Shown here one piece after another: positions 11,684 through 57,989 of a stretch of DNA of 64,000 nucleotides; positions within the stretch are counted from its first letter, which is position 1; each line of letters starts with the position of its first letter. The position numbers and the translations under genes are program-made. Source of the DNA: a bacterium. GTDB taxonomy: Bacteria; Electryoneota; Electryoneia; Electryoneales; Electryoneaceae. Below the pieces are notes generated by a model, which saw nothing but the letters and a program-made list of their open reading frames with translations, searched no databases and was not told the DNA's origin. Where the stretch lies: assembly GCA_019912845.1 (NCBI GenBank), contig JAIOHU010000287.1, forward strand, positions 8,925 to 72,924, written 5' to 3'.

Positions 11684-11702
11684 GCTTCCTACTCCTGTAT
11701 TG

Positions 11703-31542: not shown

Positions 31543-31584
31543 AAGAGCTGCCTTCACATCTGGAGGCAGCTTTATTGTTTTATC
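31543..31584. terminator. Bidirectional hairpin terminator between the convergent POT and Mut7-C genes
   Basis: AGCTGCCT (31546-31553) pairs with AGGCAGCT (31564-31571) around a 10-nt loop, extendable by A-T/G-T pairs. TTTATTGTTTTAT follows on the plus strand. Confidence 0.5.
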
Positions 31585-32318
31585 CCAAAACCTTCAATCA
31601 CTTCCAGCATACGATCCACATGTGATCCATGCCAATAGATTTTTTCACATTGCGGACAGTATTTGATTGACTCAGAATTTTTTGATAGTTTCGCAATAAT
31701 ATCCTTGGGAGCTTGTTCATAAATCTCTGTCTCTGAAGCTGTTCGTAGAAGTTCATTGCAAAGCATGCAGCGAGTAAATGGTTTTGACTGTTCACGTAAA
31801 CAGTACCGTTCAACAATCTCATCTAATTGATCTAAAGGATCTCTGTTTCTTACAACCCGACCCCATTTTAATCTTTTATTCATAAGTAATTTACGATCAC
31901 AACTTAGTAGAATCCGATTTTCAGTGAGCGCGATTTCCAGAAGATGATCATCCCCGGGGTCAACCGATTCATACCAGGTGTCGAATCCCAACAGTCTTAG
32001 ATAACCAGCTAGTTTTCCCAGGTGCACATCCACAGTAAACCGTATAGGTGTTTCGATTTCTGGCACTAAAGAGCTAATCCCGATTTTGTAACCTTGAGGG
32101 TAAGCTGCAACTCGATCCTCAGCATGGAGGCGATCTCCCATGTACGATTCATCTCCATTCACCAGCAGAAACGCAACTTCAGGGTGAGGAATACCGACTT
32201 GCTCGATTGCATCTTTTGCTGAAGTATTGATATGGACTGATAGTGGAAAGGTTTGCTGTCGTTTATCCTTAGGCAGTAGATCATTCAGTTCGCCATACAC
32301 CCTTAGAAATACCTGCAT
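31572..32318 (-). CDS. Mut7-C RNase-domain protein (DUF82/PIN-like with an N-terminal ubiquitin-like Mut7-C segment and a C-terminal Zn-ribbon)
   Basis: Family blocks ..HLGKLAGYLRLLGFDTWYESVD.. and ..ILLSCDRKLL.. are present, with the C-terminal zinc ribbon ..CMLCNELL..CPQCEKIYWHGSHVDRM... The start was set at the internal Met (MQVFLRVYGELNDLLP), which reduces the overlap with engB to 12 nt. Confidence 0.65.
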   Translation of the reverse strand: MQVFLRVYGELNDLLPKDKRQQTFPLSVHINTSAKDAIEQVGIPHPEVAFLLVNGDESYMGDRLHAEDRVAAYPQGYKIGISSLVPEIETPIRFTVDVHLGKLAGYLRLLGFDTWYESVDPGDDHLLEIALTENRILLSCDRKLLMNKRLKWGRVVRNRDPLDQLDEIVERYCLREQSKPFTRCMLCNELLRTASETEIYEQAPKDIIAKLSKNSESIKYCPQCEKIYWHGSHVDRMLEVIEGFGIKQ

Positions 32319-32328
32319 AACAAACCTC

Positions 32329-32922
32329 TTATACACCTGCCTGGTAAATATCTTCCTGCCACCAAGCCAGCATCTGGGTACGAAGTTGATCGAGTCCAAT
32401 TTTTTTCACTGCGCTGACCTGATAAATTTCCATCTCACCCTCTATCTCCTTTTCGACTTCCTGTCTGGCTTTTATCTGCTGGCTTTTAGAGAGTTTGTCT
32501 GCCTTGGTGAGGATTATTACGGGACGTACCTTTTCCAATCCTGTCCACGCGATTAATTCACGATCCAGGTCGGTTAATCCACGTCGGATATCCACAAGAA
32601 TAAGCAGACAGCGGAGGTTACCATGACCACTTAAAAAATCTGTGATCTCCTGTCGCCAGTTTGTACGCATGGCAACTCCCACTTTCGCAAAACCATAGCC
32701 AGGCAGGTCAACAAGGTCAAATCGTTCGTTGATCAGAAAACGTTGTACTTTACGAGTGCGCCCTGGTGTTTTCGAGGTTAAAGCAATCTTTTTCCCAACC
32801 AATGTATTTATCAGGGTAGATTTGCCACAATTGGATCGTCCCGCAACTGCGATGGTCGCACGTGGGGTTCCTTTATAAACCGATGGCATCTTACGGATTG
32901 ATTTAATTTCCCACTTTTTCAT
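32329..32922 (-). CDS. engB: Ribosome-biogenesis GTPase EngB/YsxC (YihA)
   Basis: The G1 motif GRSNCGKSTLINTL, G2/switch ..TPGRTR.., G3 ..DLPGYGFAKV.. and G4 ..LTKADKL.. are all present. The length is 197 aa. Confidence 0.85.
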   Translation of the reverse strand: MKKWEIKSIRKMPSVYKGTPRATIAVAGRSNCGKSTLINTLVGKKIALTSKTPGRTRKVQRFLINERFDLVDLPGYGFAKVGVAMRTNWRQEITDFLSGHGNLRCLLILVDIRRGLTDLDRELIAWTGLEKVRPVIILTKADKLSKSQQIKARQEVEKEIEGEMEIYQVSAVKKIGLDQLRTQMLAWWQEDIYQAGV

Positions 32923-33077
32923 ATTTACGATATCCTGACTTGCTTTATTGACTCACGAATCCACTATTACGTGTAGTATATAACTTTGAGCTTACTGTAA
33001 ATCATACTAGATTGCTAGTGGAGAGAATAATTCATTGTACGTCTGCCTGCAATGCACTGGCAAATTCTGGAGGGAAC

Positions 33078-36000
33078 ATGCGTTTTCTAAAACATGGTGC
33101 AGGGATAAGTCTATTACTCTTATCACTCACCTGTTCGCTTTTTGCACAAACAACCACAAATCGTGACGCTTTGCTGATACTCAGTGATGAATATACACAA
33201 CTATTTGAATCACAACGAGGCGCTGAGTATGAGGCTCTTATTAATACAGCTACAGGTCCAATCGCCAGGTTGAATCGTAGTGATAATATTGAATTGATGG
33301 GTATCGATGAAACCGGTCGTCTACTTTATTTCGGGATGAACAATCTTGTTGCTGCACAATCATTAAGCACCGATGAAGTGTGGCCAGGTGGTCAATCTGG
33401 ATATGATATTGATGGAACCAACACCGGTTTCGGTGAACTTGCTGAATGGGATGGTGGTGGAGTATTAACCACACATCAGGAGTTCAATAATTTTGTCGTT
33501 CAGATGGACAACCCAGCCGATGTTCACAGTCATTCGACCCATGTCGCTGGCACAATGATTGGACGAGGGGTCAATCCGAGCGCAAGGGGTATGAGCAACG
33601 GCGCATGGCTGACTGCGTACGATTGGAACAATGATACCGGTGAAATGGCTGGAGCTGCTGCCGAAGGCACAAAAGTTTCGAATCATTCCTATGGTGCGGT
33701 TGCCGGCTGGCACTACGACGCTGGCGATTGGTATTGGTTCGGCGATATGGGCGTGGATGAAGAAGAAGATTATCAGCTCGGACGTTATACAAGTGAAGCT
33801 CGCCGTTACGATGAGATTATGTTCAACGCCCCCTATTATACTATCTGCAAATCTGCCGGCAATGACCGCGGAGATGGCCCAAATCAGCAACCAATAATGC
33901 ATTACGTGATGCAGGGGCAAAATTGGGTTGAGAGCACTCAGTTTCACGAAAGAGAAGGTGGTGCTGATGGATTTGACAGCGTTCCACATGCTGGAAACGC
34001 GAAAAACATCATCACAGTTGGTGCTGTAAATGATGTCGACAATGGTTACAATGGTCCTGGAAGTGTCAGTATGAGTTCGTTCAGTTGCTGGGGACCAACC
34101 GATGATGGACGTATCAAGCCAGACCTCGTTGCCAACGGTATCCAGTTGATTTCGTCTGTTGCTTCTGACGATGACGCCTACGCTTCCTATTCGGGAACTT
34201 CGATGGCAAGCCCGAATCTCGCCGGTTCGATGAATCTGGTGATTCAATATTACAAGCAGACCCACGATGGCGAGGCTCCGCTTTCCGCCACAGCAAAAGG
34301 GTTGCTGATCCACACAGCTGATGAATGTGGTCCACATGATGGTCCTGATTACATGTTCGGCTGGGGATTAATGAACACCTGGCATGCCTGTGATGTAATC
34401 GCAGAGGATGTCGATCTCTTTTTCCCGATCCAGGAACGTATTCTCGAAGATCAACAGGAAGACCATTATTTCTATGTCAGCGATGGTGACGAACCCATTA
34501 CAATTACCATTTGCTGGACAGATCGTCCCGGAAATCAAGCACCCAGAGAGATTAATCCGGATGATTATTTTGCACTAATGAACGATCTGGATGTCCGTCT
34601 ATACCACGTTGAAGAAGAGCAGATGTATTTCCCCTATATCCTCAATCCTGACAACCCATCTGCTGCTGCAACTACAGGAGATAATTTCAGGGATAATGTG
34701 GAAAAAATCTACCTGGAGAATCCAGAGCCAGGCACCTATCGTGTGGATGTAACCCACAAAGATGAGCTGACATTTAATTTACCCCAAGCCTACAGCATTA
34801 TCACAACTGGTGTGATCTGGGAGGATGACCCACGAGTTTCTCCGGATAATCTTTCCGCAACACTTGATGACGCTTCCGGCGCAGTTAACCTGAGCTGGGA
34901 ACTGGAAGAGGAAAACCCGGGATTCATTGAATTTGTCATTTATAGAGATGGTGATGAGATCGAAAGAACCACCGACCTTGAATATTCAGACAACCTTGTC
35001 GATTTTGGAAAGTATGTATATGCAGTAACTTCCGTATGGGATGCCGGAGAGTCAACGCCTTCTGATCCCGTAGCCGTAAACTGGTATGAACCAGTAGCCC
35101 CCCGTTTCCTGAATGTCACCTCGTATGATACACTTTCCGGTGCACTATCATTCAGTTGGAAGCATTTACGTGATCGCGAGCTGAAATTTGATGATGGCAG
35201 TGCTGAGGACACCAGAAGATTTAACCTTGCTGGTGGCATCTTCGCTGTACGTTTTAGTGTAGAAAAGGAAGGACAACCGACTGAAGTAGGTGCTGAGTTT
35301 GGCGGTGAAGTTGAAAATTACGGCGAGATGACCTGGCTGATCTATGCTGCTGGTGACGATAGCCTTCATCCGGGTGAGCTGTTATATGAAGGTGATAATT
35401 TTGTCCCACAAAACAGTGGTTGGGAGTGGAAAAAAGTCGGCGATACGGTTTCTGAGATGGTACCTGGTGATGAGTACTGGGTTGGATTACGTTGGAATCA
35501 AGCGAACCGGACAGATGTTGGCTGGGACACCGAAGGTGAGCAGTATATGCGTGGTAGCTTCTCGCCGGATGGTGAAACCTGGAGTGGGCTGCAAGGTCCC
35601 CTGCGTGGAAACCCAATGATTCGCACAAAGTACGGTGAGGTTGAAAACTTTGGCGACGAAATAGACGAATTGTTCGACTATCAGGTCTATCGCAATGATG
35701 AGTTGCTGGCGAACACACAGGAAAGTCTGTTTGATGATGTACTACCTGATATGGGTGAGTATCGCTATACTGTGCATGCGTTGTACGATCAAGGCGAAGC
35801 GATAAGTAATCCCCTTATTGTCAACGGTGGCGAGACTTCTGTTTCTGAATCATTGCAGCCCGCAACGTTTGTGATTGGCAAAGCCTATCCAAATCCGTTT
35901 AATCCAACAGTGAGTGTCGAGGTATCACTTCGGGTGGCAGGAACCTTGCATGCAGTAGTTTATGATCTTCTTGGACGTGAAGTTGCTGTTCTCGCAACAG

Positions 36001-36125
36001 GTATTTCAAAATCTGGCGTTCATACGATCAGTTGGGATGGAGCTGGATACAGCGCGGGAATGTATTTTCTCAGCATTCAAGCTGGATCAGTTCACAATAT
36101 TCAAAAATTGATTTTGATGAAATAG
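33078..36125 (+). CDS. Subtilisin-like serine peptidase (S8 family) with a T9SS C-terminal sorting domain
   Basis: The signal peptide is MRFLKHGAGISLLLLSLTCSLFAQ, with GGAGGG 5 nt upstream. The catalytic His block HSTHVAGTMIG and Ser block GTSMASPNLAGS are present. The C-terminus is ..YPNPFNPTVSVEVSL..VVYDLLGREV..GMYFLSIQ..KLILMK. Confidence 0.8.
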   Translation: MRFLKHGAGISLLLLSLTCSLFAQTTTNRDALLILSDEYTQLFESQRGAEYEALINTATGPIARLNRSDNIELMGIDETGRLLYFGMNNLVAAQSLSTDEVWPGGQSGYDIDGTNTGFGELAEWDGGGVLTTHQEFNNFVVQMDNPADVHSHSTHVAGTMIGRGVNPSARGMSNGAWLTAYDWNNDTGEMAGAAAEGTKVSNHSYGAVAGWHYDAGDWYWFGDMGVDEEEDYQLGRYTSEARRYDEIMFNAPYYTICKSAGNDRGDGPNQQPIMHYVMQGQNWVESTQFHEREGGADGFDSVPHAGNAKNIITVGAVNDVDNGYNGPGSVSMSSFSCWGPTDDGRIKPDLVANGIQLISSVASDDDAYASYSGTSMASPNLAGSMNLVIQYYKQTHDGEAPLSATAKGLLIHTADECGPHDGPDYMFGWGLMNTWHACDVIAEDVDLFFPIQERILEDQQEDHYFYVSDGDEPITITICWTDRPGNQAPREINPDDYFALMNDLDVRLYHVEEEQMYFPYILNPDNPSAAATTGDNFRDNVEKIYLENPEPGTYRVDVTHKDELTFNLPQAYSIITTGVIWEDDPRVSPDNLSATLDDASGAVNLSWELEEENPGFIEFVIYRDGDEIERTTDLEYSDNLVDFGKYVYAVTSVWDAGESTPSDPVAVNWYEPVAPRFLNVTSYDTLSGALSFSWKHLRDRELKFDDGSAEDTRRFNLAGGIFAVRFSVEKEGQPTEVGAEFGGEVENYGEMTWLIYAAGDDSLHPGELLYEGDNFVPQNSGWEWKKVGDTVSEMVPGDEYWVGLRWNQANRTDVGWDTEGEQYMRGSFSPDGETWSGLQGPLRGNPMIRTKYGEVENFGDEIDELFDYQVYRNDELLANTQESLFDDVLPDMGEYRYTVHALYDQGEAISNPLIVNGGETSVSESLQPATFVIGKAYPNPFNPTVSVEVSLRVAGTLHAVVYDLLGREVAVLATGISKSGVHTISWDGAGYSAGMYFLSIQAGSVHNIQKLILMK

Positions 36126-36247: not shown

Positions 36248-38398
36248 ATGCCATCTGATTCTGTAAATAAGACTGAGAAAACTGATCAACCTCGCACGAA
36301 TCACTTTGCGCCCATGATCGAAGTCGGACGTGTATGCCTCGCTTCTTATGGTATCATGGCATTTGTGAACCATCCTCTCCCTGCGCTGCTCATATTTCTG
36401 GCGACATTTTACCATCCTGTGATCGGTCTGATGGGTTTGCTGGGTAGCTTAATCTCAACTCTGACCGCACGTTGGGTGGGTGCACACCCCGCTGCCTGGC
36501 GTAGTGGAGTGCATGGTGTCAGTGGTATGTTGATCGGGTTGGCAATCGGGATGTACGCCCAGATCGAGATCAAAACGATTCTCTTCACGATCATCGGCAC
36601 CGCTTCTGTAGGAGTGATCAGTACACTCCTGGGAGCCACCCTCGCAAAACATGATCTTCCGATTCTAAGCCTTCCCTTTATGTTGATGATTTATCCAGTG
36701 CTGATTTCTGTCGGCGTGGAACATATCGATAGTCAAAGTTATCCTGCGATCGCTTTTTTACGTGATATTGATGTCTGGCTCTTCAGTGTGCTGCCATTGA
36801 GTCTATTTGAATTTATCAAAATGTTCGGAAATATTCTGTTCCAGGAAAACTTGATTTCCGGGGTTCTGGTGCTGCTTGGAATTGGTCTGTGGTCACGTAT
36901 CTCGCTTGGTTATGCGCTGTGGGGTGGGCTTCTCGGACTGGGAACATACTATTTTCTACATGGCTCGCTGGATGGATTTCATGGTTTGAATTATGTACTG
37001 ACAGCATTGGCTTTTGGTGGCTTTTTCCTCGTCGCCAACCATAACGCCTTTTATTTTGCTTCTCTGGCGATTGTAACGGTTGGTCTGGTGGACTATGCGG
37101 CATTTCAATTCCTGAATCCCGAAACAACGCTATCTTTATCAAACCTTCCTTCCGCCATTCGTACTTCCACGCAAGCTGAAAAGATACCCACGCTTGTTTT
37201 CGCATTTAATGTTGTCACCCTTGCCTATCTATTTCCGCTGAAAATAGCACAACTCAATCGTCAAAGATCGAAATTGGTTCCCGTCCCCTTGGAGCTGATA
37301 AAGAATCCAGAAACAAACATCCGTCTCGCTCGACGATGGGAACAGAATAAGTACATCCAGAAAACCCGCCTCTCCTTTCCATTCCTGGGAAGCTGGGTGG
37401 TTTTTCAGGGTCACAATGGCGAGTGGACTCATAAGGCGAAGGGAAAATATGCCTGGGATTTTGTCGTGGAAGATGAACAGGGGCAAATGTACCGTAACGC
37501 CGGATTGAATATTGAGGACTATTACTGTTTCGGGCTTCCTGTATTTGCACCAGCCCCAGGTACGATTGTACGACTTGAATCCGATGTTGAAGACAATCCG
37601 CCAGGAACAGCGGTCACAGAACGTAACTGGGGGAACTATGTCATCATCGACCATGGCAACGGCGAATTTTCCGAAATCAGCCACTTCAAGAAGGGATCTA
37701 TTACGGTCGGGTTGGGAGCCGTGATTCAACGTGGGCAGTTGCTGGGATACTGCGGAAATTCCGGCAGGTCGCCTGTTCCGCATATTCATTTTCAATTACA
37801 GGATGCAGTTCGTCCCGGTAGCGAGTCTCTTCCCGCTTGTTTCGCTGAGAGTATTGTCAACAACGAGATTCGCTTGAACACAGTGCCTGAGAAAAATGAT
37901 ATCCTCAGTTCATTGGATATTGACGCTGAAGCTGAATGGGGATTACTGGGACGCGAAGAAGAAATATGGGAATTTTCGGTTCGCTTGGGAATGAGACGAT
38001 TTACGGAAATCCTCTATTTTGTCACCGATGTCTATGGGATGCCCTCAATTGTCAGCAAAAACCAGCATCAGTGGTATATCCTTGATAAGCCGCATTTTGT
38101 GCAACTATCGCCCGACTTCAAAACCTTCCCAACCCTACTTGCGCCTAGTGGCTGGGTGGAATTGATTGGTGACGCACTCTTCCTGCCGAAAACATTGACA
38201 ACAGACCTTCACTGGGAAAATGGAGAAATTCTGGATGAAAAAGGTAAGCATTGGACAATCAAAACAAATGGCAGAAAAATAGTGATCGATGTGGAAAAAA
38301 ATGTTATTCTATCTGCTTCCATCGACAACAAACCCGACTTTGAACTGCGTCTGATCCGTAGGATACTTCCCAATGGTTCAGTTGAAAATATCTCATGA
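36248..38398 (+). CDS. Fusion protein: urea-transporter (UT-family)-like membrane domain + M23 (LytM-type) metallopeptidase domain + C-terminal domain of unknown function
   Basis: The N-terminal ~330 aa are polytopic and carry UT-family-like blocks (..GRVCLASYGIMAFVNHPLPALLIFLATF..; ..GLLGSLISTLTARWVG..; ..GVHGVSGMLIGLAIGMY..). The central part has the M23 motifs ..KGKYAWDFVVED.. and ..GQLLGYCGNSGRSPVPHIHFQLQ.. (the HxH zinc site). About 200 aa of unassigned sequence follow. Confidence 0.55.
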   Translation: MPSDSVNKTEKTDQPRTNHFAPMIEVGRVCLASYGIMAFVNHPLPALLIFLATFYHPVIGLMGLLGSLISTLTARWVGAHPAAWRSGVHGVSGMLIGLAIGMYAQIEIKTILFTIIGTASVGVISTLLGATLAKHDLPILSLPFMLMIYPVLISVGVEHIDSQSYPAIAFLRDIDVWLFSVLPLSLFEFIKMFGNILFQENLISGVLVLLGIGLWSRISLGYALWGGLLGLGTYYFLHGSLDGFHGLNYVLTALAFGGFFLVANHNAFYFASLAIVTVGLVDYAAFQFLNPETTLSLSNLPSAIRTSTQAEKIPTLVFAFNVVTLAYLFPLKIAQLNRQRSKLVPVPLELIKNPETNIRLARRWEQNKYIQKTRLSFPFLGSWVVFQGHNGEWTHKAKGKYAWDFVVEDEQGQMYRNAGLNIEDYYCFGLPVFAPAPGTIVRLESDVEDNPPGTAVTERNWGNYVIIDHGNGEFSEISHFKKGSITVGLGAVIQRGQLLGYCGNSGRSPVPHIHFQLQDAVRPGSESLPACFAESIVNNEIRLNTVPEKNDILSSLDIDAEAEWGLLGREEEIWEFSVRLGMRRFTEILYFVTDVYGMPSIVSKNQHQWYILDKPHFVQLSPDFKTFPTLLAPSGWVELIGDALFLPKTLTTDLHWENGEILDEKGKHWTIKTNGRKIVIDVEKNVILSASIDNKPDFELRLIRRILPNGSVENIS

Positions 38399-38726: not shown

Positions 38727-38757
38727 AAAATTCGTTTTCTATATGGGGGAAGTTTTC

Positions 38758-41700
38758 ATGAAAACTCGAATCCTATCCTATTTGATTCTCGTATTGTTCT
38801 TCCTGATTCCATCTTCTGGTTTCGCACAGGATAGTCTTGGTATTTCACATGAAAGTATATCCTATTCTTTCTGGGATTATGCTACAGATGCTGCGATCTC
38901 TGGGAATTACGCTTACATCGGTACACGAGAGACCGGGATAAAAGTGGTTGATATCTCTGATATCGCTAATCCCTTTGAAGTTGCGCAGTGTCGTCTAGCT
39001 GGGAATGTGCAACAGGTTGCCATTTACGATGAATATCTTTTTGTGCCATGCGACTATGAGGGTATGTATATTATCGATGTGTCAGTCCCTGAAGACCCGG
39101 AAATTGTCTATCGCTACACACCTCGTCGAGCTTTTGAAGTTACTTTTTATGATCACTACGCATTTGTAACAGTTGTCAGTGATGGTTTCAGCATCCTGGA
39201 TATTACAAATCCTGCAGAACCAGAATTGGTAACCAATGTAAACCCTCCAAACGGTATGGTTAAACATTTAAAACTTACCGAGACCCACGCATTTGTAGGC
39301 AAAAACATTAGCGAAATGTTAATCTACAATATTGAAGATATTGAAAACCCTGTGCAGGTGGGAACAGCAGAACACAATAATACTATCGATGATATGGAAC
39401 TTGTTCAAGAGGACTACCTTTATGCCATCAGTGAGTATGGTCATCTGCAGATATTTAACATAAGTGATCCTGAGAACGTGGAAATGGCTGCTGTATTTGT
39501 AGATTATAACTACACTGAAATGACACAGGCATTCCCATATCTTTTCGTTCGCTCTGGTGATACCTCACAATATGTTCTTGATATTTCTGATCCTCTCAAT
39601 CCGGAAGAAGTTACCTTCCTGGGTAATTTGCCATGGCATCGTGTTGTGATTATTGATGATCAAAATGCAATCGCATGCTCTGGTGAGGATGGCATATTCA
39701 CACTGGATTATCAGAACATTGCAGAGATTGAGGAATTAGGAGTTTATGATACTGAAGGACGAGTATATGGAGTGTGTCTATGGGATCACTACGCTCTGCT
39801 TTCAGGAAAAGACTATGGACTTATGATTGTAGATGTATCAGAACCCTCTAATCCGGTAGAAGTTGGTCACTATCAATCCGAGGGCAGGATCATCAATGTC
39901 GAGGTTATGGATCATTACGCTTTACTCGCCAACCAGGAGCTCGGGCTTGAAATTATCGACATTATTGATCCTGCCAACCCACAATTAGTCAGCCAGTTTG
40001 AGAGCCAGGACGGATATCGCGCAGTTGCAGTGGATGGCAACCTGGTCTTTGTGTCGGGAGGGAATCGTCAAGGGTTGGATATTCTTGACTGTACTGATCC
40101 TGTGAACCCTGAATTACTCTCCAATACCTGGATCGGTTATGAATGCAGGGGAATAGATATACAGGGAAATTACGCTTATCTGGCAATGGCGTACGGTGCA
40201 GTTTCGATTGTTGACATAAGAGATCTGACAAATCCAGAGGTAATCGCAGCTTGGGGTGAAGATACTCATATAGAAGAAATCGTTGCTTACAATGATATTA
40301 TTTTCGCTGCAGAATGGAGCTATGGAGTGACGATGTTGGATGTTTCAGATCCCACAAGGATATTCGAAATTCATCATTTTGATACTGGAGGTAATGTTCG
40401 GGACGTCTTTATTGCCAATGATTTACTTTATGTCGCTTCTGAGGGAACTGGGTTGTATATAATTGACCCCAATGATCCAGATTTTGCTGTTGTTGGGTAT
40501 TATGAAACCATCAATCGTCTGATAACTGTTGTCGCTGATGGACGGTACGCTTACATGGGCGAAAAATTCAGTTTCCAGATTTTTGATTGTGGAGAAGCGG
40601 TTGGATATGATCTAATAGAACGAACGCCACATTATGAAGCTGTTCTTCCTACAAACCGACCCTATTCAATTATCATCAATAATGCAACTTGGAATGAATT
40701 ACCGCTCACCGAAGGAGATGAAATCGGCGTTTTTGATGGGAACCTTTGCGTTGGAGCTGCCATACATGAAGGTGACTTTCCATTGGAAATAACCGTGTGG
40801 GAAGAGAATGAAGCGGAAGGGCTGGGAGGGTTTACTGTCGGTAATGGAATCAGTTTTCTTGTTTGGCAAAGTGAGGCTGAGGCTGAATATCAGGTTGATG
40901 TTGACTGGATTGAGGGGGATGGTTTATTCGGATTTGATCCTCTAACCGTAGCGGAATTAACCCTTCACAATCAACCCCTCCTTCAAATAAACCTGCGTGG
41001 CAACTACCATAACCTGGTTTCCAGCTATCTTGTGCCGGATGAATTGGGGTTTGAAGAGGTATTCGGTGGGATTAATAACCTGCAAATCGTGTATGAGGAC
41101 GAAGGCGATATCTTTATTCCGGGTATTCCTACAGTTGGAGAAGTAGACAACAGAGAAGGTTACAAGATTTTCACATCTGAACCCTCTACATGGCACACCA
41201 CTGGTACACCTCTGGATCAGGGTATAGAATTCGAATTATTTGCAAATCGTTGGAACTGGCTAGGGTATCCCTTCGGAAATGAACGTCCTCTGGAAACAAC
41301 CCTCAGTGAGATTGAGGATCAGCTTGTTGCGCTTCTGACCGATGACGGTGGCATTTATATCAATAATCCTCCACAATTTGTAATCAACACAATTGGAAAT
41401 CTGGAAGCTGGAAAAGGGTATATGGTTTTTGTAAACGAGGATGTTTCTTTCGAGTATCTTTCTGATACCTGGCTTGAACGTACTCCCACAACACCGCAAA
41501 TAACCGATATTCCTATTGTCGAAGGTGCCCCTGAACCTACCGGATTACCCTATGTTGTTGTCATCTCGAACTATGAACATCTGGCTGATAAATCAACCAT
41601 TGTCGAGCTTTACGATGGTGAAATACTGGTCGGGAAAGGGCTGTTACTGGAGGATCAACCAGTCACACCAATCCTCGCCTGGCAGGGGGACAGCGAACAC

Positions 41701-42132
41701 AACATGATCGGATTTGAGCCTGGTAATCCGATTCACCTCAAGCTCCTGGCAGCCAATGGCGATGTACTGGTGGACCGTATAGTCGAGGGTGTGCAGTACG
41801 GCGACGCCCCTTATGCGCTGCTGGAATTATCAAATATACTTCCTGAACAGTCCGAAGACTTTTCCCTGCCGGGGCATTTTACAGTTCAAAATGCTTATCC
41901 CAATCCGTTCAACTCGACACTATCCATTCCATTTTCACTGCCCCATTCATCGCAGGTAACCATTCAGCTTTATAATGTCCTCGGGCAACTGCAATCTGAA
42001 GCAACCCAGCAGTTTGAAGCAGGAAAACACATCTACTCAATTCAAGGTGAGCAGCTTGTGAGTGGATTGTATTTTCTGAAAGTGGAAATGGAAGGGCAAA
42101 CATTTATGCAGAAAGTGGTGTTGCTCAAATAG
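38758..42132 (+). CDS. LVIVD-repeat beta-propeller surface protein with a C-terminal shared module and a T9SS sorting domain
   Basis: The signal peptide is MKTRILSYLILVLFFLIPSSGFAQ, with GGGGGA 7 nt upstream. At least 12 LVIVD-type repeats are present (VVDISDIANPFEV, IIDVSVPEDPEIV, ILDITNPAEPELV, IFNISDPENVEMA, VLDISDPLNPEEV, IVDVSEPSNPVEV, IIDIIDPANPQLV, ILDCTDPVNPELL, IVDIRDLTNPEVI, MLDVSDPTRIFEI and others). The C-terminus is ..AYPNPFNSTLSIPFSL..IQLYNVLGQL..SGLYFLKV..KVVLLK. Confidence 0.7.
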   Translation: MKTRILSYLILVLFFLIPSSGFAQDSLGISHESISYSFWDYATDAAISGNYAYIGTRETGIKVVDISDIANPFEVAQCRLAGNVQQVAIYDEYLFVPCDYEGMYIIDVSVPEDPEIVYRYTPRRAFEVTFYDHYAFVTVVSDGFSILDITNPAEPELVTNVNPPNGMVKHLKLTETHAFVGKNISEMLIYNIEDIENPVQVGTAEHNNTIDDMELVQEDYLYAISEYGHLQIFNISDPENVEMAAVFVDYNYTEMTQAFPYLFVRSGDTSQYVLDISDPLNPEEVTFLGNLPWHRVVIIDDQNAIACSGEDGIFTLDYQNIAEIEELGVYDTEGRVYGVCLWDHYALLSGKDYGLMIVDVSEPSNPVEVGHYQSEGRIINVEVMDHYALLANQELGLEIIDIIDPANPQLVSQFESQDGYRAVAVDGNLVFVSGGNRQGLDILDCTDPVNPELLSNTWIGYECRGIDIQGNYAYLAMAYGAVSIVDIRDLTNPEVIAAWGEDTHIEEIVAYNDIIFAAEWSYGVTMLDVSDPTRIFEIHHFDTGGNVRDVFIANDLLYVASEGTGLYIIDPNDPDFAVVGYYETINRLITVVADGRYAYMGEKFSFQIFDCGEAVGYDLIERTPHYEAVLPTNRPYSIIINNATWNELPLTEGDEIGVFDGNLCVGAAIHEGDFPLEITVWEENEAEGLGGFTVGNGISFLVWQSEAEAEYQVDVDWIEGDGLFGFDPLTVAELTLHNQPLLQINLRGNYHNLVSSYLVPDELGFEEVFGGINNLQIVYEDEGDIFIPGIPTVGEVDNREGYKIFTSEPSTWHTTGTPLDQGIEFELFANRWNWLGYPFGNERPLETTLSEIEDQLVALLTDDGGIYINNPPQFVINTIGNLEAGKGYMVFVNEDVSFEYLSDTWLERTPTTPQITDIPIVEGAPEPTGLPYVVVISNYEHLADKSTIVELYDGEILVGKGLLLEDQPVTPILAWQGDSEHNMIGFEPGNPIHLKLLAANGDVLVDRIVEGVQYGDAPYALLELSNILPEQSEDFSLPGHFTVQNAYPNPFNSTLSIPFSLPHSSQVTIQLYNVLGQLQSEATQQFEAGKHIYSIQGEQLVSGLYFLKVEMEGQTFMQKVVLLK

Positions 42133-46187: not shown

Positions 46188-49100
46188 TTACTTCAGCAGA
46201 GTAATCTTCTGAGTAAAGGTCTGACCGTTAAACTGCGTGGTCAGGAAGTACACACCAGAAACCAGTTCGGTACCAGAACGATTCGCATCGAATACGAAGC
46301 GGTGGAAGCCAGCCTGGAAATGCTGGGATGTATTGAATACCTGCTGACCGAGAACATTATACACTGCGAAGCTGACTTCACCGTTCATCGGAAGTGCAAA
46401 CGGAATGGTCACACTTGGGTTGAATGGATTCGGATAGCCCTGGTCGACCGCGAACTCTGTTGGAACTGGTGCGACATCGAGGTTCAACAGGGTGTATGCA
46501 CCCTTGCCGAACTCCGGTGCATCATCGTTCATATGAACGACTGGTAGCACAGTACCATCAGCCGCTTTGACCACAAAGCGCATTGAATTGCCACTGATGA
46601 AACCTTCGAGATTACGATCAGCATCACCCTGCCATGCAGTTACCGGTGTGTAATCGCGATCATCAAGGATAACACTCTTACCTACAAGAGTCTTGCCATC
46701 ATAAAGTTCGATGATTGCAGGGTTTAATTCCTGAAGATCATCGCTCATGCTGAGCACGACTGTGTAAGGAAGACCTGTTGCTTCTGGAGCACCTTCAACC
46801 GCTGGGATATCCCAGACATCATGCTTGGTGTTTCCTGCGGCAACAGCATCATTGTAAGTGAAGTCAACAGCTTCATTCACGAAGAACATGTACCCTTCAC
46901 CAGGGGTCATATCACCAATTGTGTTAATGTCAAACAGTGGTGGAATCCATACGCCACCATCATCAGTCTGCACAATTTCTACGAAATCACGAATGTGATT
47001 CAGTGCTTCAATTGTGTTGACATCATGGTTGAATGGATAGCCAACCCAGTTCCAACGATTCGGGACAGCATGATATTCGGTATCGGTTGGAATAGGATCA
47101 CCAACAAAGGTAACCATGGAGTTTGCATCACAGAATAGACGATAACCCTGATCCATGGAAATATCAACGATGGTATTGATGAACGGCGGAATTACAATGC
47201 CACCATCATTCTGATAAGCAATTGCGAGATCTGGAATACCACCAAAGATATCCATGGCATTCAGACTTTCTGGTTGAATGTAAGATGAAATTAATTCGAA
47301 ATAGTTACCCTGAAGCGGTATTTCGAGTTCATTATCAGGTTGAATTTCACCTTCACCCCTTACAGTCAATCTGGAGTACGGTGCATAACCAAAGGTACCA
47401 TCACCCTGGGTATATTCAGCTTCTGCATCCATGATTTCACCAGTTACACTATTCCAAATCTGGAAAGTCATAGTGTTGCCAGGTGTAAATCCTGGGAATG
47501 CAGGATCTTCGGACATTTCCCATGCGATAAGCGAACGTGGGTATTGACCATTCATAGCAGTCGCACCGACACAAAGATCACCATCATATACAGCAACACC
47601 GGAGCCGGCTGGTAGAGGATTGTCGCCCTCAAAAGCACCATCGAGAATCAGTGAGTAAGGCAGACCATTCGGATCTACCGGGTTAAAGATTCCACCAGCA
47701 CCATAAATAAGTGTTACCCATACTGTTGCAATTTCACCTTGATGATGATTTGGATCAATTTCGATCAGCGCTTCGTAAGAACCTTCTGCCATTTCAAGAT
47801 CGGTTACATCTGCGATCAAGTCGACATCCATTTCTTCACCGATAGGAATTAAACCATCACCCGGTTCAACTGTCAACCAGCCACCTTGACCAGCATAAAG
47901 GGTAGCGTAGGCAATTGTGTTACCAAGAATATCTGCATTTACCCAGTCAAGAATCCAGCCGATTTCCCACGTCATGGTTGATATGAGAATCGTACCACGT
48001 CCCATTTCCATTTCGACCAGGGTTGGCTGACCGAGAGAAGTGGTTGCAAGAATATTTGCATCTTCTGGAACATCATTGATGATATCATGTGAGTCAGAAC
48101 CACCAGTCCACTGCTCTGGAATGTTCATCATGATTCCATGTTCTGGCATATTGTTAAAACCAGTACCACTTGGCGCATAGGTATTGCTCATGCCCCAGAG
48201 GTTCCAGGTATATGCCTGTGTACATCCACCGAAGATAATCCAGCCACCATCATCCATGAAGTCGAGGAAACGTTCCTCATTATCTTGAACTGTATTCAGG
48301 AAGTTCTGACTTTGAACGTTCGTGAAGATGATACAAGAGTATTCACCGAGATCATGATTAGCCATCTGTCCTGAATTGATGATGTCATAAGGCACTTCCA
48401 TTGCATCAAGGAAGGCTTGGTGTGCAGGAGCACCCCAGGCATCAGTGTCTTGAATAATCAGGAAGTAAGGATCATCCAGCTCATTTGTATATGGAGCTGT
48501 TGGGATACTCGGATATGCGTTAATATCTGTGGATGGTGCATGATTGAAATCTACCGCACCTTTAGCCAGCGTACGATTAAGAATGTAATCACGCGCATTT
48601 TCACGCATCGTGTTAACTTCTTCTTCTTCAATGTAGACAACACTTGCATCCCAATCCATATCCAAGCCACCTGCGTTTCCGATGGTCAGAACATCTGAAT
48701 CTGTATCGCCTTCTTCCGGGATGACAAATATAAACTCATTCGGGTTCAGGGTAACAAACGGTGGAATATGATGGTCAATTTCGATATCCAGAGTCGTTGT
48801 CTCACCTTCGATGAGCGCAACTGTCATGATATCTGAGGCATAATAATCAGCAGCCGTTGCCTGTACATCCCAGTCACCTGTACCTAATGGATAGGCATAG
48901 TAACCATTTTCATCAGTTTCAACTTCAGCAACTGGTTCTTCCAGGTCACCCCAGATTGTTACCAGTGCACCTTCGACAGGATCGCCAGTTTCATTGTCAC
49001 TGACAACACCTTCCAGTGTACCTGGATCACCAATAAGGAAAGTTACCCAGACAGTTACAGGATCAAGTGTATCTGGCCATGCAACATTAAAGTCGATGGT

Positions 49101-52100
49101 AGCTTCATAAACACCAGGAAGCTCAGCATCAATCGCATTGGCAAGAACATCAATCTCAACTGTTTCATCAATGTCGAGGTGTCCGCTATTCGGCTCAATT
49201 GCCAGCCAGCCACCCGCGCCGGAGGCGACTAAGAGCGCGTTCGCCATGAGACGATCACAATCAGTTGCCGGGTTCCAACCACCATTGATAGCATCATTAG
49301 AGGGTGGGAAGAGACCTAATGCAACAGTAATACCGTTGTCCATCTGGTCACGGACCGCTGCAACCGCACGTCCATCACCCCAGTCAGCAATACGAAGCGC
49401 TTCGGGATGGACATCAAAAGTTGACTGACGATAGGAAGAGGTACCACCATCTAGTTCTTCGATTTCTTCCATCATCAGGTGGTTCGCTTCAAAAACTTCA
49501 CCTAATGTCTGCTGCGGACCATATTGGTTTCCTGATGGCGGGAATGCATAATAACCTTCAGCATTCCAACGACCCTGCATATAAACACCGGCTGATTCGA
49601 ATACAGCATGAACAACGCCGTAGCCTTCATCAACATAGTCAGCCATTACATTGCCAACGCCGATGTAATCCAGATAGCCGTAGTTTGTCCAAGTCATTAC
49701 CGCATCGAATTCCATCAGTTCTTCTAGACTGGGTAAAACATTACGCGCATCAACAATCGTAATAGTTTCAAAGAGTTCTAATGCTGCCAACTTGTTTGCA
49801 ACATCATCTTGATAAATTACATCGTCAGCCGGATAAAGCAGAATATTCGCATTATCAAGCTCACCATTTCCATCAATTACGCGTGCGATTTGATCTGGAC
49901 GAGTTACAACGTCCGGACCGTTGGCACCAAGCGTGGTTGCTAATGGATAATTGGTAATTGGACCATCAAGAATACCAGAACGTGCGATCCAGTTCTCGAC
50001 AACCGCTTCTCTACGTGCTTGCTCATTGTTACCACGTGCTGCAATTTCATCTTCAATATAGGTAATGCTGCCAGACCAATCGGCTGGCAAACCACCGATA
50101 TTGCTGAGCGTCAGGATATCACTGTCTGAACCAAGCCAACCCGCTTCAAAATCAAAGAATTCGGGATCAACTACGAGTTCAGGTGCAACTTCGTGGACCA
50201 ATGCGATATCGTGAACTGTTGCCTCACCTTCAATAACTGCAGCAGTTTCGATGTCAGACGGATAATAACCCATCGCATCTGCCATCACATCCCATTCACC
50301 CGTTCCGAGTGGGTAGGTGTAAAAACCTTCTGCATCTGTTTCAACTTCAGCTACTGGTTCTTCGAGGTCACCCCAGATTGTTACCAACGCACCTTCGATT
50401 GGATCACCTGAGTCTACGTCATAGACAATACCTTCAAGAGAGCCGGGATCGCCAACATTCATGGTTACCCATGAAGTTACCAGAGCACCTTCTTCTGTGC
50501 CATCATTATACCAGACATCAATTGAAGCTTCATAGATACCAGGAAGGTCTACATTTGAAGCATCAACAGTTACATCGAGATCCATAATGCCAGCGGGTTC
50601 AACAGTTCCAGCATCAGGTTCAACTGTCAACCAGTTGCCAGAGCCAACCCACAACGCATCGTATTCAATCATGTTGTGCATGATGTCGCCAGCAACCTGA
50701 CCAGCACCTACACCATATTCAAGCGTCTGGGTGCTGACAATCATGTTACCACCGCCATAAGGCAGTTCAAGAAGAACTGGACGCTGTTGTGTATCTACGC
50801 AAAGAATCAAGGCATCTTCAGGAACATTGTCAATCCAGCCATGATTTGCGGACCCACCAGTGTAATTTTCAGGAATGCCTTCCATCATTGGATGGTCAGG
50901 CATCACGACCTGGTTATTGCCATCGCCTTGATGCACATAGTTCATGTCATTCCAGAATGTCCAGGTCGCCCCTTGAGTACAACCGTGGAATTCGAGACAA
51001 CCACCGCCATCAACCCACTCTTCAAAGCGATCAGCATTGTTCATGAAGTTGTTGTAAAAACCCTGACCCTGGGTGGATGGGATCATGATAACATTGTATT
51101 CTTCCGCTTCAAAGTCGTAGTCTGCCATTGACGCAGAGTTGACCAGGTCGAAAGGAATACCAAGTTCGTTCAGATAATCTTGATGTGAATTATTCCAGGG
51201 AATCTGATCCTGGAACAACAGGAAGTAAGGATCATCAAGTTCACTGAATTGAGGTTCGGTAGGAACAACATTGAAGATATCACTTGACGGACCGTTGTAT
51301 TCAATTGTGGTACCACGAGTTGCACGGAAATTAGCTGCATTTTCGCGTACCATTCTACGGAAGTCCATAATTTCTTCATCTTCGATGTAGGTAATGTCGA
51401 CCCAGAAATCGATGTCGGCACCACAATCGCCAAGATGTGTAACTGTAAGGATATCAGAATCGGACGCAAGCCAACCCACATCAAATGTGAATTGATCGGG
51501 GTCCACCATGAGTTCTGCCAGTGGATCCATTTCGATATCCACAACATTTTCGCCTTCTTCCAGCACGACATCCACTTCAGTCAAGGCGAAGCCTTCAGCC
51601 ATTGCACGAGCAGTGTAGCCACGTGAATAGACGCCTTCAATCATGTAGTAACCATCTGCATCGGTGGTTGCCATCTGGTTACCGAAGTATACTTCAGCAC
51701 CCTCAACAGCATCCCCATCACATGCATCAGTCACAACACCTTCAACCGAAGCGTTGGGATCTGCGAATCCACCTTCATTGATAGTGAATCCAACTGCGGT
51801 TTCAGCTTGGGGGGTATTGCCGGCATTGTTGTAGCAATATTCAAGACCGTCAGTACCTTCAGCATTTTCAATACCGATGGTAACAAAGTCCCGGTTAAGG
51901 TTGGGAGTCATGCTGTGGTATTGAATCACGATATCGCCAGATTCATACAAAAGGATTTCTGCATTGATATTTTCTTGATCCGGACCATCTGGGTATTCAT
52001 CCCAGTCGACAAACTGAATAACGGTAAAGTCACCCATATTTTCAATGTAAGCCATACCATCATCGCCAGCGTCTGGATCCATATCACGCCACCACCAGGC

Positions 52101-52592
52101 AATCAGGTTGTTTGGTGCCCAGTTTGATGGAAGTGTCTGGTTGCCAAGGTCCCACATGGCATCTTCAGAAAAACCGATCATACCATTGGAGCCGAGGAAA
52201 AACTGATCGTATGTGTTGCCATAAAACTCAAAATCAAATCCAAGAGCGAAAGGACCTGTATAGTCATCGTCAAATGGAATGGCTAGTGCTTCACCGGTTT
52301 CGGTGATATCAAGCCAATCATAGGCAGGACCATTTGCCTCATCGCTGTCAAAATAATAATAACCAAAGTTATCTGGACCGCCGGTGCGGTCAAGCTCATT
52401 ATGGCCTTCAACAATAACGCCAGCAAAAGTGAGAATTTCATGCTGACGTTCAGTCAACTGATTCCCAAGTTTGTAAGCGTTAATTGCTTGCTTGTATTCA
52501 TCGTAACGTGAATCCTTCAGGGTGGTGTTATCTACCGCAAAGGCAGCCGTTACAAGGAAAGCTAGCAAAAGCAGTACTGAAGCAACTCTCAT
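46188..52592 (-). CDS. Giant (2134 aa) modular T9SS-secreted surface protein with a triplicated internal module and a C-terminal module shared with the LVIVD protein
   Basis: The signal peptide is MRVASVLLLLAFLVTAAFA. There are three copies of a ~440-470-aa unit (a CarbopepD_reg-like start EGVVTD../EGIVYDVDSGDPIEGALVTIWGDL../EGVVSDNETGDPVEGALVTIWGDL.. followed by a ..ELDDPYFL..DGGG..HGCTQ.. domain). The C-terminal ~420 aa are homologous to the LVIVD protein. The tail ..QGYPNPFNPSVTIPFAL..VYNVLGQQV..SGVYFLTT..KITLLK is a T9SS domain. Confidence 0.75.
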   Translation of the reverse strand: MRVASVLLLLAFLVTAAFAVDNTTLKDSRYDEYKQAINAYKLGNQLTERQHEILTFAGVIVEGHNELDRTGGPDNFGYYYFDSDEANGPAYDWLDITETGEALAIPFDDDYTGPFALGFDFEFYGNTYDQFFLGSNGMIGFSEDAMWDLGNQTLPSNWAPNNLIAWWWRDMDPDAGDDGMAYIENMGDFTVIQFVDWDEYPDGPDQENINAEILLYESGDIVIQYHSMTPNLNRDFVTIGIENAEGTDGLEYCYNNAGNTPQAETAVGFTINEGGFADPNASVEGVVTDACDGDAVEGAEVYFGNQMATTDADGYYMIEGVYSRGYTARAMAEGFALTEVDVVLEEGENVVDIEMDPLAELMVDPDQFTFDVGWLASDSDILTVTHLGDCGADIDFWVDITYIEDEEIMDFRRMVRENAANFRATRGTTIEYNGPSSDIFNVVPTEPQFSELDDPYFLLFQDQIPWNNSHQDYLNELGIPFDLVNSASMADYDFEAEEYNVIMIPSTQGQGFYNNFMNNADRFEEWVDGGGCLEFHGCTQGATWTFWNDMNYVHQGDGNNQVVMPDHPMMEGIPENYTGGSANHGWIDNVPEDALILCVDTQQRPVLLELPYGGGNMIVSTQTLEYGVGAGQVAGDIMHNMIEYDALWVGSGNWLTVEPDAGTVEPAGIMDLDVTVDASNVDLPGIYEASIDVWYNDGTEEGALVTSWVTMNVGDPGSLEGIVYDVDSGDPIEGALVTIWGDLEEPVAEVETDAEGFYTYPLGTGEWDVMADAMGYYPSDIETAAVIEGEATVHDIALVHEVAPELVVDPEFFDFEAGWLGSDSDILTLSNIGGLPADWSGSITYIEDEIAARGNNEQARREAVVENWIARSGILDGPITNYPLATTLGANGPDVVTRPDQIARVIDGNGELDNANILLYPADDVIYQDDVANKLAALELFETITIVDARNVLPSLEELMEFDAVMTWTNYGYLDYIGVGNVMADYVDEGYGVVHAVFESAGVYMQGRWNAEGYYAFPPSGNQYGPQQTLGEVFEANHLMMEEIEELDGGTSSYRQSTFDVHPEALRIADWGDGRAVAAVRDQMDNGITVALGLFPPSNDAINGGWNPATDCDRLMANALLVASGAGGWLAIEPNSGHLDIDETVEIDVLANAIDAELPGVYEATIDFNVAWPDTLDPVTVWVTFLIGDPGTLEGVVSDNETGDPVEGALVTIWGDLEEPVAEVETDENGYYAYPLGTGDWDVQATAADYYASDIMTVALIEGETTTLDIEIDHHIPPFVTLNPNEFIFVIPEEGDTDSDVLTIGNAGGLDMDWDASVVYIEEEEVNTMRENARDYILNRTLAKGAVDFNHAPSTDINAYPSIPTAPYTNELDDPYFLIIQDTDAWGAPAHQAFLDAMEVPYDIINSGQMANHDLGEYSCIIFTNVQSQNFLNTVQDNEERFLDFMDDGGWIIFGGCTQAYTWNLWGMSNTYAPSGTGFNNMPEHGIMMNIPEQWTGGSDSHDIINDVPEDANILATTSLGQPTLVEMEMGRGTILISTMTWEIGWILDWVNADILGNTIAYATLYAGQGGWLTVEPGDGLIPIGEEMDVDLIADVTDLEMAEGSYEALIEIDPNHHQGEIATVWVTLIYGAGGIFNPVDPNGLPYSLILDGAFEGDNPLPAGSGVAVYDGDLCVGATAMNGQYPRSLIAWEMSEDPAFPGFTPGNTMTFQIWNSVTGEIMDAEAEYTQGDGTFGYAPYSRLTVRGEGEIQPDNELEIPLQGNYFELISSYIQPESLNAMDIFGGIPDLAIAYQNDGGIVIPPFINTIVDISMDQGYRLFCDANSMVTFVGDPIPTDTEYHAVPNRWNWVGYPFNHDVNTIEALNHIRDFVEIVQTDDGGVWIPPLFDINTIGDMTPGEGYMFFVNEAVDFTYNDAVAAGNTKHDVWDIPAVEGAPEATGLPYTVVLSMSDDLQELNPAIIELYDGKTLVGKSVILDDRDYTPVTAWQGDADRNLEGFISGNSMRFVVKAADGTVLPVVHMNDDAPEFGKGAYTLLNLDVAPVPTEFAVDQGYPNPFNPSVTIPFALPMNGEVSFAVYNVLGQQVFNTSQHFQAGFHRFVFDANRSGTELVSGVYFLTTQFNGQTFTQKITLLK

Positions 52593-57888: not shown

Positions 57889-57989
57889 TATTTCATCCCT
57901 CTTCCTTGATAAAACCAATGAGTTGCCGCATCTTTTGCCATCAAAATTAACTGATCCTTCATGCTAATCCAAGTATGAAATAAATTTTT

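Follow-up and report, generated by a model that had tools for sequence, protein, structure and literature searches.

A three-domain gene in the window

The DNA analysed here (the window) is a stretch of 64,000 nt from a bacterium of the Electryoneaceae (assembly GCA_019912845.1, contig JAIOHU010000287.1, positions 8,925 to 72,924 of the forward strand). The gene of interest occupies 36248..38398 on the + strand, where an open reading frame (ORF) encodes in one chain a urea transporter (UT)-like channel domain (residues 21-335, 36308..37252, +), a basic linker (residues 336-382, 37253..37393, +), an M23 metallopeptidase domain (residues 383-524, 37394..37819, +) and an all-beta C-terminal domain (residues 525-716, 37820..38395, +). 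The single uninterrupted frame of 716 codons runs from the ATG at 36248 to the stop codon at 38396-38398 (+) and its product is identical to the NCBI protein MBZ0266395.1, labelled 'urea transporter [bacterium]'. This product is an inner-membrane protein of a genuine, large and conserved three-domain family, referred to below as UT-M23, which supplies a conserved gene cassette with its membrane component.

The Pfam profiles assigned residues 29-330 to UT (PF03253, E=8.9e-40, with 137.1 bits where the cutoff is 25 and an alignment over 3-290 of the 292 profile positions) and residues 429-519 to Peptidase_M23 (PF01551, E=1.1e-12, 48.4 bits against a cutoff of 28.7). A sequence search of the PDB matched the N-terminal part to dvUT of Desulfovibrio vulgaris (3k3f, E=1.5e-20) as well as to human UT-A and UT-B, and the middle part to ShyA, Pgp3, zoocin A, LytM and lysostaphin. 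An AlphaFold2 model of the full-length protein, for which 88 homologues were supplied as input, was predicted with high confidence (predicted local distance difference test score, pLDDT, 93.3; predicted template modelling score, pTM, 0.88), and Foldseek aligned it with dvUT at a template modelling (TM) score of 0.83 (normalised to the target) and with M23 catalytic domains at about 0.7. The initial annotation of this DNA, which had recognised both a UT-like membrane domain and an M23/LytM domain in the same frame, was therefore right on both counts: the peptides that it quoted are present, profile searches gave the N-terminal part to UT rather than to another family, and the comparison with dvUT that it proposed showed the expected superposition.

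The same annotation had proposed a survey of related genomes for the fusion and had raised the possibility that two separate genes were joined by a frameshift or by misassembly. Nothing was found in favour of such an artefact, and it can be taken as ruled out: the frame is continuous, the linker is conserved, the full-length model is confident, and both Pfam domains are present in 97/97 homologues (29-100% identity). In a scan of one genome per species, using an alignment of the close clade of the UT-M23 family as query, genomes of at least 574 species were seen to encode a collinear relative. When the 381 C-terminal residues that are specific to the family served as query, 594 representatives of clusters at 50% identity were returned (E<=1e-30), and in the full-length matches the M23 part always begins about 300-350 residues into the protein, so that the peptidase module essentially always has a UT-sized domain before it. 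The G+C content along the gene (0.42-0.49) is the same as that of its flanks. Carriers include Fidelibacterota (Marinimicrobia), Calditrichota, many Bacteroidota (cultured species among them), Chlorobiota and Ignavibacteria, together with a few metagenome-assembled genomes (MAGs) of Dehalococcoidia, Myxococcota and Lentisphaeria. Two relatives, P0193 (1085 aa) and P0214 (1073 aa), are about 350 residues longer than typical members, which implies a further C-terminal domain.

The pore of the UT domain

The limits of the UT domain were set from the Pfam and dvUT matches, the Foldseek alignment and the DSSP helices of the model, which has the UT fold, built from a pair of inverted repeats of five helices each plus pore helices and with its last helix at residues 318-335, and gives TM scores of 0.77-0.83 against human and bovine UTs. 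To map the selectivity filter, dvUT residues 10-284 were rebuilt from the PDB alignment and placed on an alignment of 88 family members; the rebuilt numbering agrees with the published filter residues. As the rebuilt dvUT ends at 284, the position of T294 was placed from the LPxxTxPF-type repeat motif.

The hydrophobic walls of the pore are retained in the family alignment at the positions of dvUT L84, L129, L247, F27 and F190 and as V188/I, and the corresponding residues of the query (L95, L140, L251, F39 and F198) are conserved. The filter itself is substituted. The four residues of the central constriction (Sm), L84, T130, L247 and T294, have been reported to be identical from dvUT through to UT-B and UT-A2; in the query the two leucines are kept (L95 and L251) and both threonine positions are changed. 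The position of T130 is occupied by S141 (36668..36670, +), which lies in the first signature motif LPILSLPF and is Ser in 85/88 members, and the inferred position of T294 by V317 (37196..37198, +), in the second signature motif IPTLVFAF, where the column holds V or A and Thr in only 1/88. The polar 'oxygen ladder' positions, dvUT Q24 at the inner site (Si) and E187 at the outer site (So), both of which are Gln in mammals, correspond to I36 (36353..36355, +) and N195 (36830..36832, +). At the former the close clade has V, I or A and the remaining clades still have Q or E; at the latter the close clade has N or S and the remaining clades A, S or L.

Because a search of the available literature found no mutagenesis data for T334V/T172V, the functional weight of the change at T294 is taken from its conservation. 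With this proviso, conserved walls around a substituted filter indicate that the pore architecture is under selection and that its chemistry has moved away from that of a urea channel, and we infer a pore that is probably more hydrophobic than a urea channel, with a remodelled filter. The score of the protein against the equivalog model for urea transporters of the Yut type (TIGR03441, urea_trans_yut) was 94.6 bits, below the cutoff of 274.6, and no urease or urea-metabolism genes were found in the window or in five annotated neighbourhoods of relatives.

Linker and predicted topology

The conserved linker contains a near-invariant P354-E355 and a helix at residues 354-366. From the last UT helix to the M23 domain, the sequence and the AlphaFold2 model alike are free of transmembrane helices and hydrophobic stretches, and the protein has no signal peptide or additional N-terminal helix. 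The linker is strongly basic (family means of 7.2 K+R and 3.0 D+E, net +4.2). With the protein placed N-in/C-in, and the linker entered in the inside count by its first 15 residues only, the inside exceeds the outside by 4.0 K+R on average; such an excess occurs in 93% of the 88 sequences, and the outer loops of the UT domain are net acidic. In the solved UTs both termini are intracellular. In their survey of UT architectures Cagliani et al. (2026, Biol Direct 21:32; PMC12998343) likewise describe the UT N-terminal tail as intracellular, and the further modules that they report on the UT C-terminus, ankyrin and EF-hand, are of intracellular types.

The missing helix after residue 335, taken with a charge bias that fits N-in/C-in and with homology to the solved UTs, predicts that the M23 and barrel domains are cytoplasmic, which we regard as quite probable. 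The extracytoplasmic location usual for the M23 family would thus not apply here, and a peptidase held away from peptidoglycan disfavours the cell-wall-lytic role that the initial annotation had suggested.

The M23 and C-terminal domains

M23 peptidases are defined by an H(x)nD motif, an HxH motif and an auxiliary His about 30 residues before the latter (PMC9662197). All are present in the UT-M23 protein, in a domain that matched ShyA, Pgp3 and zoocin A in the PDB at E=5e-9 to 8e-8. The first zinc motif is H395-x8-D404 (THKAKGKYAWD, 37430..37459, +; n=8), in which T394, H395, A402 and D404 are invariant in 88/88, and it is separated from the conserved M23 core by a stretch of about 25 residues. 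The auxiliary H479 (37682..37684, +) lies 33 residues ahead of the HxH motif, H512-I-H514 (37781..37789, +), which is found within CGNSGRSPVPHIHFQLQ. H395, D404, H479, H512 and H514 are invariant in the 88 sequences, which are 26-60% identical, and this favours catalysis over a degenerate regulator of the LytM type; the domain is therefore predicted to be catalytically intact. A further residue of its glycine-rich block, C502, is an invariant Cys.

The last part of the protein, about 200 aa that the initial annotation had left unassigned, has indeed no Pfam or NCBIfam match within residues 525-716. By fold it can be placed: as modelled, the C-terminal ~190 residues are an open beta-barrel of the LolA/LolB/RseB/lipovitellin/DUF3108 type, similar to solved LolA, LolB, RseB and DUF3108-like members, and the Bacteroidota-type UT-M23 proteins have C-terminal tails that are homologous to this domain. 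The sole family match for the barrel region was a sub-threshold one to DUF3108_like in the relative P0071 (25.3 bits against 27). Extra fused domains in the longer relatives, which were sought as a clue to the compartment, yielded nothing beyond a weak DUF3108_like match.

A conserved gene cassette in relatives

Five annotated relatives carry three genes upstream of UT-M23 on the same strand, for a PqqD-family protein (about 81-86 aa), an ATP-grasp ligase (about 350 aa, ATPgrasp_Ter) and a pyridoxal-phosphate-dependent (PLP) decarboxylase of the Orn/DAP/Arg fold (DAP, diaminopimelate; about 450 aa). The order of the cassette is thus PqqD-like chaperone, ATP-grasp ligase, LysA/FslC/BtrK-type decarboxylase, UT-M23. 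Hidden Markov models (HMMs) built from these neighbours were run on every ORF of another 80 loci. They found the decarboxylase in 76/80, and in 68/80 it is the gene immediately before UT-M23 on that strand, at a median distance of 67 nt; one extra gene intervenes in 6/80 and the order is rearranged in 2/80. It is absent from 4/80, in three of which the upstream sequence is short (L012 and L041, at most 524 nt; L031, 1.2 kb) and in the fourth of which (L006) the flanks are long. All three trio genes are present in 68/80 loci (for example at L002:5131-7910 and L044:7309-9959, upstream of UT-M23). This linkage identifies the UT-M23 family as the membrane component of the cassette. Inspection by eye of the genes inserted between the decarboxylase and UT-M23 showed an eIF-2B/ribose-bisphosphate-isomerase-like gene in L032, L035 and L064, a gene for a methyltransferase-like protein in L034 and an IS200-type transposase at L075:1871-2330. 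Among relatives the cassette decarboxylase is by a wide margin the better conserved of the two, at about 63-82% identity, against 47-60% for UT-M23 in the same genomes.

None of the three partner proteins reaches a curated NCBIfam cutoff. The PqqD-like protein is nearest to the lasso-peptide PqqD chaperone (E=1e-11), and the ligase to the PRK12767 'CPSase-like' ATP-grasps, with a weak resemblance to Ddl and to pseudomurein ligases. For the decarboxylase the nearest NCBIfam models are LysA (221 bits against 298) and FslC, and in the PDB it best matches LysA, the N-citrylornithine decarboxylase FslC and the gamma-glutamyl-carrier-protein decarboxylase BtrK. The substrates of FslC and BtrK are amino-acid moieties that are tethered via their distal group. 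The source labels 'diaminopimelate decarboxylase' and 'alanine racemase' given to the cassette enzyme are probably wrong.

Secreted partners are usually part of the cassette as well, and they gave no match to Pfam or NCBIfam. At the Bacteroidota-type loci (about 40) a secreted protein of about 440 aa resembling tetratricopeptide repeat (TPR) proteins starts 9-21 nt ahead of the UT-M23 stop codon, and this overlap suggests translational coupling. It has the motif IDFYYL..R.GIAY and is found in L033-L085 (e.g. L044:12148-13425 and L062:12178-13506). In 22/80 loci (Fidelibacterota and Calditrichota) a Cys-rich secreted protein of about 140 aa is encoded upstream of PqqD, often preceded by a protein of about 265 aa that resembles outer-membrane barrels and ends in ...GLQxRF. 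The ~140-aa protein has a signal peptide (L002:4673-5113, L003:4925-5329, L005:3004-3453) and, in L002 and L005, the motifs WLG[IV]SLYPY ... CYWCKKNGFHL. For about 70 loci the 700 nt ahead of PqqD were searched for a conserved precursor-peptide ORF; this search, which could miss short, divergent precursors, gave only alternate-frame artefacts of neighbouring genes. No literature was found on the cassette, or on PqqD together with a urea transporter.

Setting of the gene in this genome

The window was searched by tblastn with 22 neighbour-gene proteins from the five relatives (15 of them trio proteins), and all of its ORFs were searched with the HMMs. No trio gene or other cassette gene was found in the 36 kb upstream or the 26 kb downstream of UT-M23, so that here the gene is not directly preceded by the trio on its own strand. 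In L006, the closest genome relative (60% identity), the trio is likewise missing, and there is no further synteny with the window. In a second relative of 60% identity (L001) the trio lies two genes upstream, with two cargo genes of the type IX secretion system (T9SS) inserted in between. A location of the trio elsewhere on the same contig was considered and rejected, since the L001 decarboxylase found no homologue on its 127,677 bp. The protein MBZ0266184.1, which is 77% identical to the L001 cassette decarboxylase, is encoded on a contig of 4,030 bp and its accession is 211 numbers from that of MBZ0266395.1; from this proximity the two very probably belong to the same MAG submission. A different contig of this MAG thus probably carries the cassette, and the UT-M23 gene described here is best seen as a detached member of it.

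The two genes that flank UT-M23 do encode T9SS cargo, as the initial annotation had noted: an S8 subtilase upstream (33012-36125, +) and an LVIVD-repeat protein downstream (38743-42132, +), each with a Por_Secre_tail. It had also suggested, as one possibility, a part in envelope remodelling during T9SS cargo export or division. Such genes are frequent in the window, which has at least four Por_Secre_tail cargo genes (the others at 46188-52592, -, and 57990-60134, +) and one gene for a PorV-like outer-membrane protein (16676-17707, -), so that flanking by two of them has little weight. They are not conserved neighbours of UT-M23, whereas the PqqD, ATP-grasp and decarboxylase genes are, and the T9SS neighbours appear to be incidental. 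The earlier interpretation is therefore supported only in part: predicted topology and conserved cassette together point to a function other than T9SS export or cell-wall remodelling. The four cargo proteins counted here are the S8 subtilase, the LVIVD beta-propeller, a 2,134-aa CarboxypepD_reg/ThuA protein and a protein of the penicillin-amidase family.

Relation to known systems

The initial annotation held that a channel-like domain coupled to a cell-wall peptidase had not been described. This does not hold, as the bacterial UT+M23 architecture was catalogued, with a model of UniProt A0A399T3G1, by Cagliani et al. (PMC12998343), and a JGI label, 'urea transporter/murein DD-endopeptidase MepM', already names both domains (other database entries say only 'urea transporter'). 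The proteins catalogued are likewise bacterial and have the same domain order, N-terminal UT and C-terminal M23. On function that paper goes only as far as 'diverse functions or specific regulation', and it is silent on topology, filter substitutions, the third domain, catalytic status and gene context. New here are the finding that the catalytic residues are invariant, the substitutions in the filter, the predicted topology, the barrel assignment and the linkage to the cassette.

With dvUT, Yut and UT-B/UT-A (PF03253) the UT-M23 proteins share the fold, about 26% identity and the hydrophobic pore walls, but hydrophobic or small residues stand at the Q24 and E187 positions, V or A at T294 and Ser at T130. 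They also fall below the Yut cutoff, are found without a urease context and have about 380 extra C-terminal residues. The M23 domain has the fold of LytM, lysostaphin, ShyA, MepM, Pgp3 and LasA, with their H(x)nD and HxH motifs, auxiliary His and G-x-S/T-G-R-x-x-x-P-H-x-H block. It differs from those endopeptidases in its H-to-D spacing (8, against 3 in M23B), in the stretch of about 25 residues after the Asp motif, in the invariant C502, in the predicted cytoplasmic face, in being tethered to a channel and in having no cell-wall-binding domain.

The partner genes recall two kinds of biosynthetic system. The cassette decarboxylase is related to FslC of rhizoferrin synthesis (E=1e-47) and BtrK of butirosin synthesis (E=2e-23), and as in the BtrI/BtrJ/BtrK set an ATP-grasp ligase and a small partner protein stand beside it. 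In the cassette, however, a PqqD-type peptide chaperone takes the place of an acyl carrier protein as the small partner, a membrane-bound fusion of peptidase and channel closes the series, and no aminoglycoside or siderophore genes are linked to it. Like the lasso-peptide core (a B1 RiPP recognition element or RRE, where RiPP stands for ribosomally synthesised and post-translationally modified peptide, a B2 protease and a C lactam synthetase), the cassette has an RRE-type chaperone, a protease and an ATP-dependent amide-forming enzyme. Here its protease is M23 rather than transglutaminase-like and its amide-forming enzyme is an ATP-grasp rather than an Asn-synthetase-like protein; no precursor gene was detected, and a decarboxylase and a channel domain are added.

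Possible function of UT-M23 proteins

The reading that we tentatively prefer, although we rate it at somewhat less than an even chance, is that UT-M23 is a pore-coupled cytoplasmic hydrolase that serves as the membrane component of the cassette in an uncharacterised, peptide-linked small-molecule pathway. In the scheme that we infer for its chemistry, the PqqD-type chaperone would present a peptide to the ATP-grasp ligase, which would attach an amino acid to it while it is chaperone-bound, and the LysA/FslC/BtrK-like enzyme would decarboxylate the tethered residue. The M23 domain, held beneath the membrane by the UT domain, could then cleave an amide or peptide bond of the intermediate, and the small product could cross the membrane through the re-tuned, more hydrophobic UT-like pore, to be handled by the secreted and outer-membrane partners. 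The opposite direction, in which a small substrate is imported and then processed, would be equally possible, and the barrel could bind a hydrophobic portion of the substrate or act as a gate to the site. A more specific form of the proposal, that UT-M23 is a new kind of channel-coupled cytoplasmic metallopeptidase carrying out the terminal step of a peptide-templated pathway in bacteria of the FCB (Fibrobacterota-Chlorobiota-Bacteroidota) group, with the product set free by M23 just below the pore and leaving through it, is rather doubtful.

Several points weigh against the proposed pore-coupled hydrolase. No substrate, product or precursor peptide was identified for the cassette, and no conserved short ORF was seen beside PqqD. 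A UT pore is too narrow for peptides, which makes the coupling of hydrolysis to permeation a conjecture. In the window UT-M23 stands alone, so that co-function with the cassette in this organism rests on the proximity of two accession numbers. Finally, M23 and LolA/DUF3108-like domains are typically extracytoplasmic and the cassette is partly secreted, and with a topology derived from sequence features a periplasmic peptidase is possible.

This last possibility, close to what the initial annotation had in mind, is that of a periplasmic, membrane-anchored peptidoglycan endopeptidase that uses its UT-like domain as an anchor or gate during envelope remodelling for division or T9SS export. Its catalytic residues are intact, the characterised M23 enzymes all have extracytoplasmic peptidoglycan as their substrate, domains of the LolA/DUF3108 type occur mostly in the periplasm, and both the secreted partners of the cassette and the T9SS cargo genes on either side of UT-M23 would fit. 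With no signal peptide and no extra transmembrane helix, however, it would need an inverted UT domain, which contradicts both the positive-inside bias seen in 93% of members and the net charge of +4.2 in the linker; the T9SS genes are common in the window without being conserved neighbours, and the neighbours that are conserved encode ATP-dependent and PLP-dependent enzymes of cytoplasmic type. We consider it unlikely. A genuine channel for urea or a urea analogue, with its pore regulated or plugged by cytoplasmic M23 and barrel domains, is an idea that comes from PMC12998343 and draws on the UT fold and most of the pore-wall residues being retained, on the source annotation 'urea transporter' and on the regulatory modules of other UT fusions. 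It is very unlikely, given that Q24, E187 and T294, conserved from dvUT to mammals, are replaced across the family (at Q24, in its close clade), that the score is far under the Yut equivalog cutoff, that urease and urea-metabolism genes are lacking nearby and that five invariant catalytic residues would be needless in a merely regulatory domain. These two explanations conflict with more of the data than do the two that follow.

If the M23 domain is on the cytoplasmic face it might edit cell-wall precursors there: the ligase and the DAP-decarboxylase-like enzyme would modify the stem peptide, for instance on lipid II, and M23 would trim it while the LolA-like barrel held the polyprenyl or acyl chain and the UT domain served mainly as a scaffold. 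The predicted location, the specificity of M23 enzymes for bonds of the D-Ala/DAP/Gly type, the LysA enzymes among the best matches of the decarboxylase, the weak likeness of the ligase to Ddl and pseudomurein ligases, and the lipid-carrier fold of the barrel all agree with this. Yet it leaves the PqqD peptide chaperone without a role, the strong conservation of the pore lining speaks for a working pore rather than a scaffold, and no mur, fem or other cell-wall genes were linked to the cassette in the loci inspected, so that precursor editing too seems improbable as a whole. A RiPP-like pathway akin to lasso-peptide synthesis would give that chaperone its place, as an RRE, next to an ATP-dependent amide-forming enzyme and an M23 leader peptidase, with the UT domain as an anchor only; the best match of the PqqD protein is the lasso-peptide PqqD chaperone, and ligase and protease are both in the cassette. 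Against it, no conserved precursor ORF was found, the cassette has no peptide exporter, a LysA-like decarboxylase is atypical of RiPPs and the matches all fall under the curated cutoffs, and we give it little chance.

By the usual view M23 proteins hydrolyse peptidoglycan outside the cytoplasm and UT proteins conduct urea. The UT-M23 family, which takes in no fewer than 574 species and some 590 clusters at 50% identity, fits neither description: its peptidase is predicted to be intact yet is probably cytoplasmic, and its pore is conserved yet has lost polar urea-binding residues. The protein is almost invariably tied to a ligase, a decarboxylase and a peptide chaperone. If the proposed coupling were true it would mean that a metabolite pathway has gone unrecognised in bacteria that are abundant in the sea and in sediments (Fidelibacterota, Calditrichota and Bacteroidota), and that both the UT and the M23 fold have been put to a new use. 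In the meantime the labels 'urea transporter', 'peptidoglycan DD-metalloendopeptidase', 'diaminopimelate decarboxylase' and 'alanine racemase' probably mislead inferences on the nitrogen cycle and the cell wall that are drawn from metagenomes. The question is testable in cultured carriers, namely Mariniphaga sediminis, Seonamhaeicola aphaedonensis, Seonamhaeicola sediminis, Polaribacter septentrionalilitoris and Ancylomarina salipaludis.

Other features of the window

A scan for promoters and terminators around the UT-M23 gene gave counts at the level of shuffled sequence. Four large ORFs of 490-910 aa, all on the - strand (8000-9703, 9713-11731, 17716-20448 and 56446-57918), had no Pfam match at E<=1e-4. 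The nearby genes upstream of UT-M23 encode an SDF symporter, an MFS transporter, a Mut7-C RNase and a GTPase. The RNase gene (31572-32399, -) includes an N-terminal Ub-Mut7C ubiquitin-like domain and adjoins that of the small GTPase (32329-32922, -).

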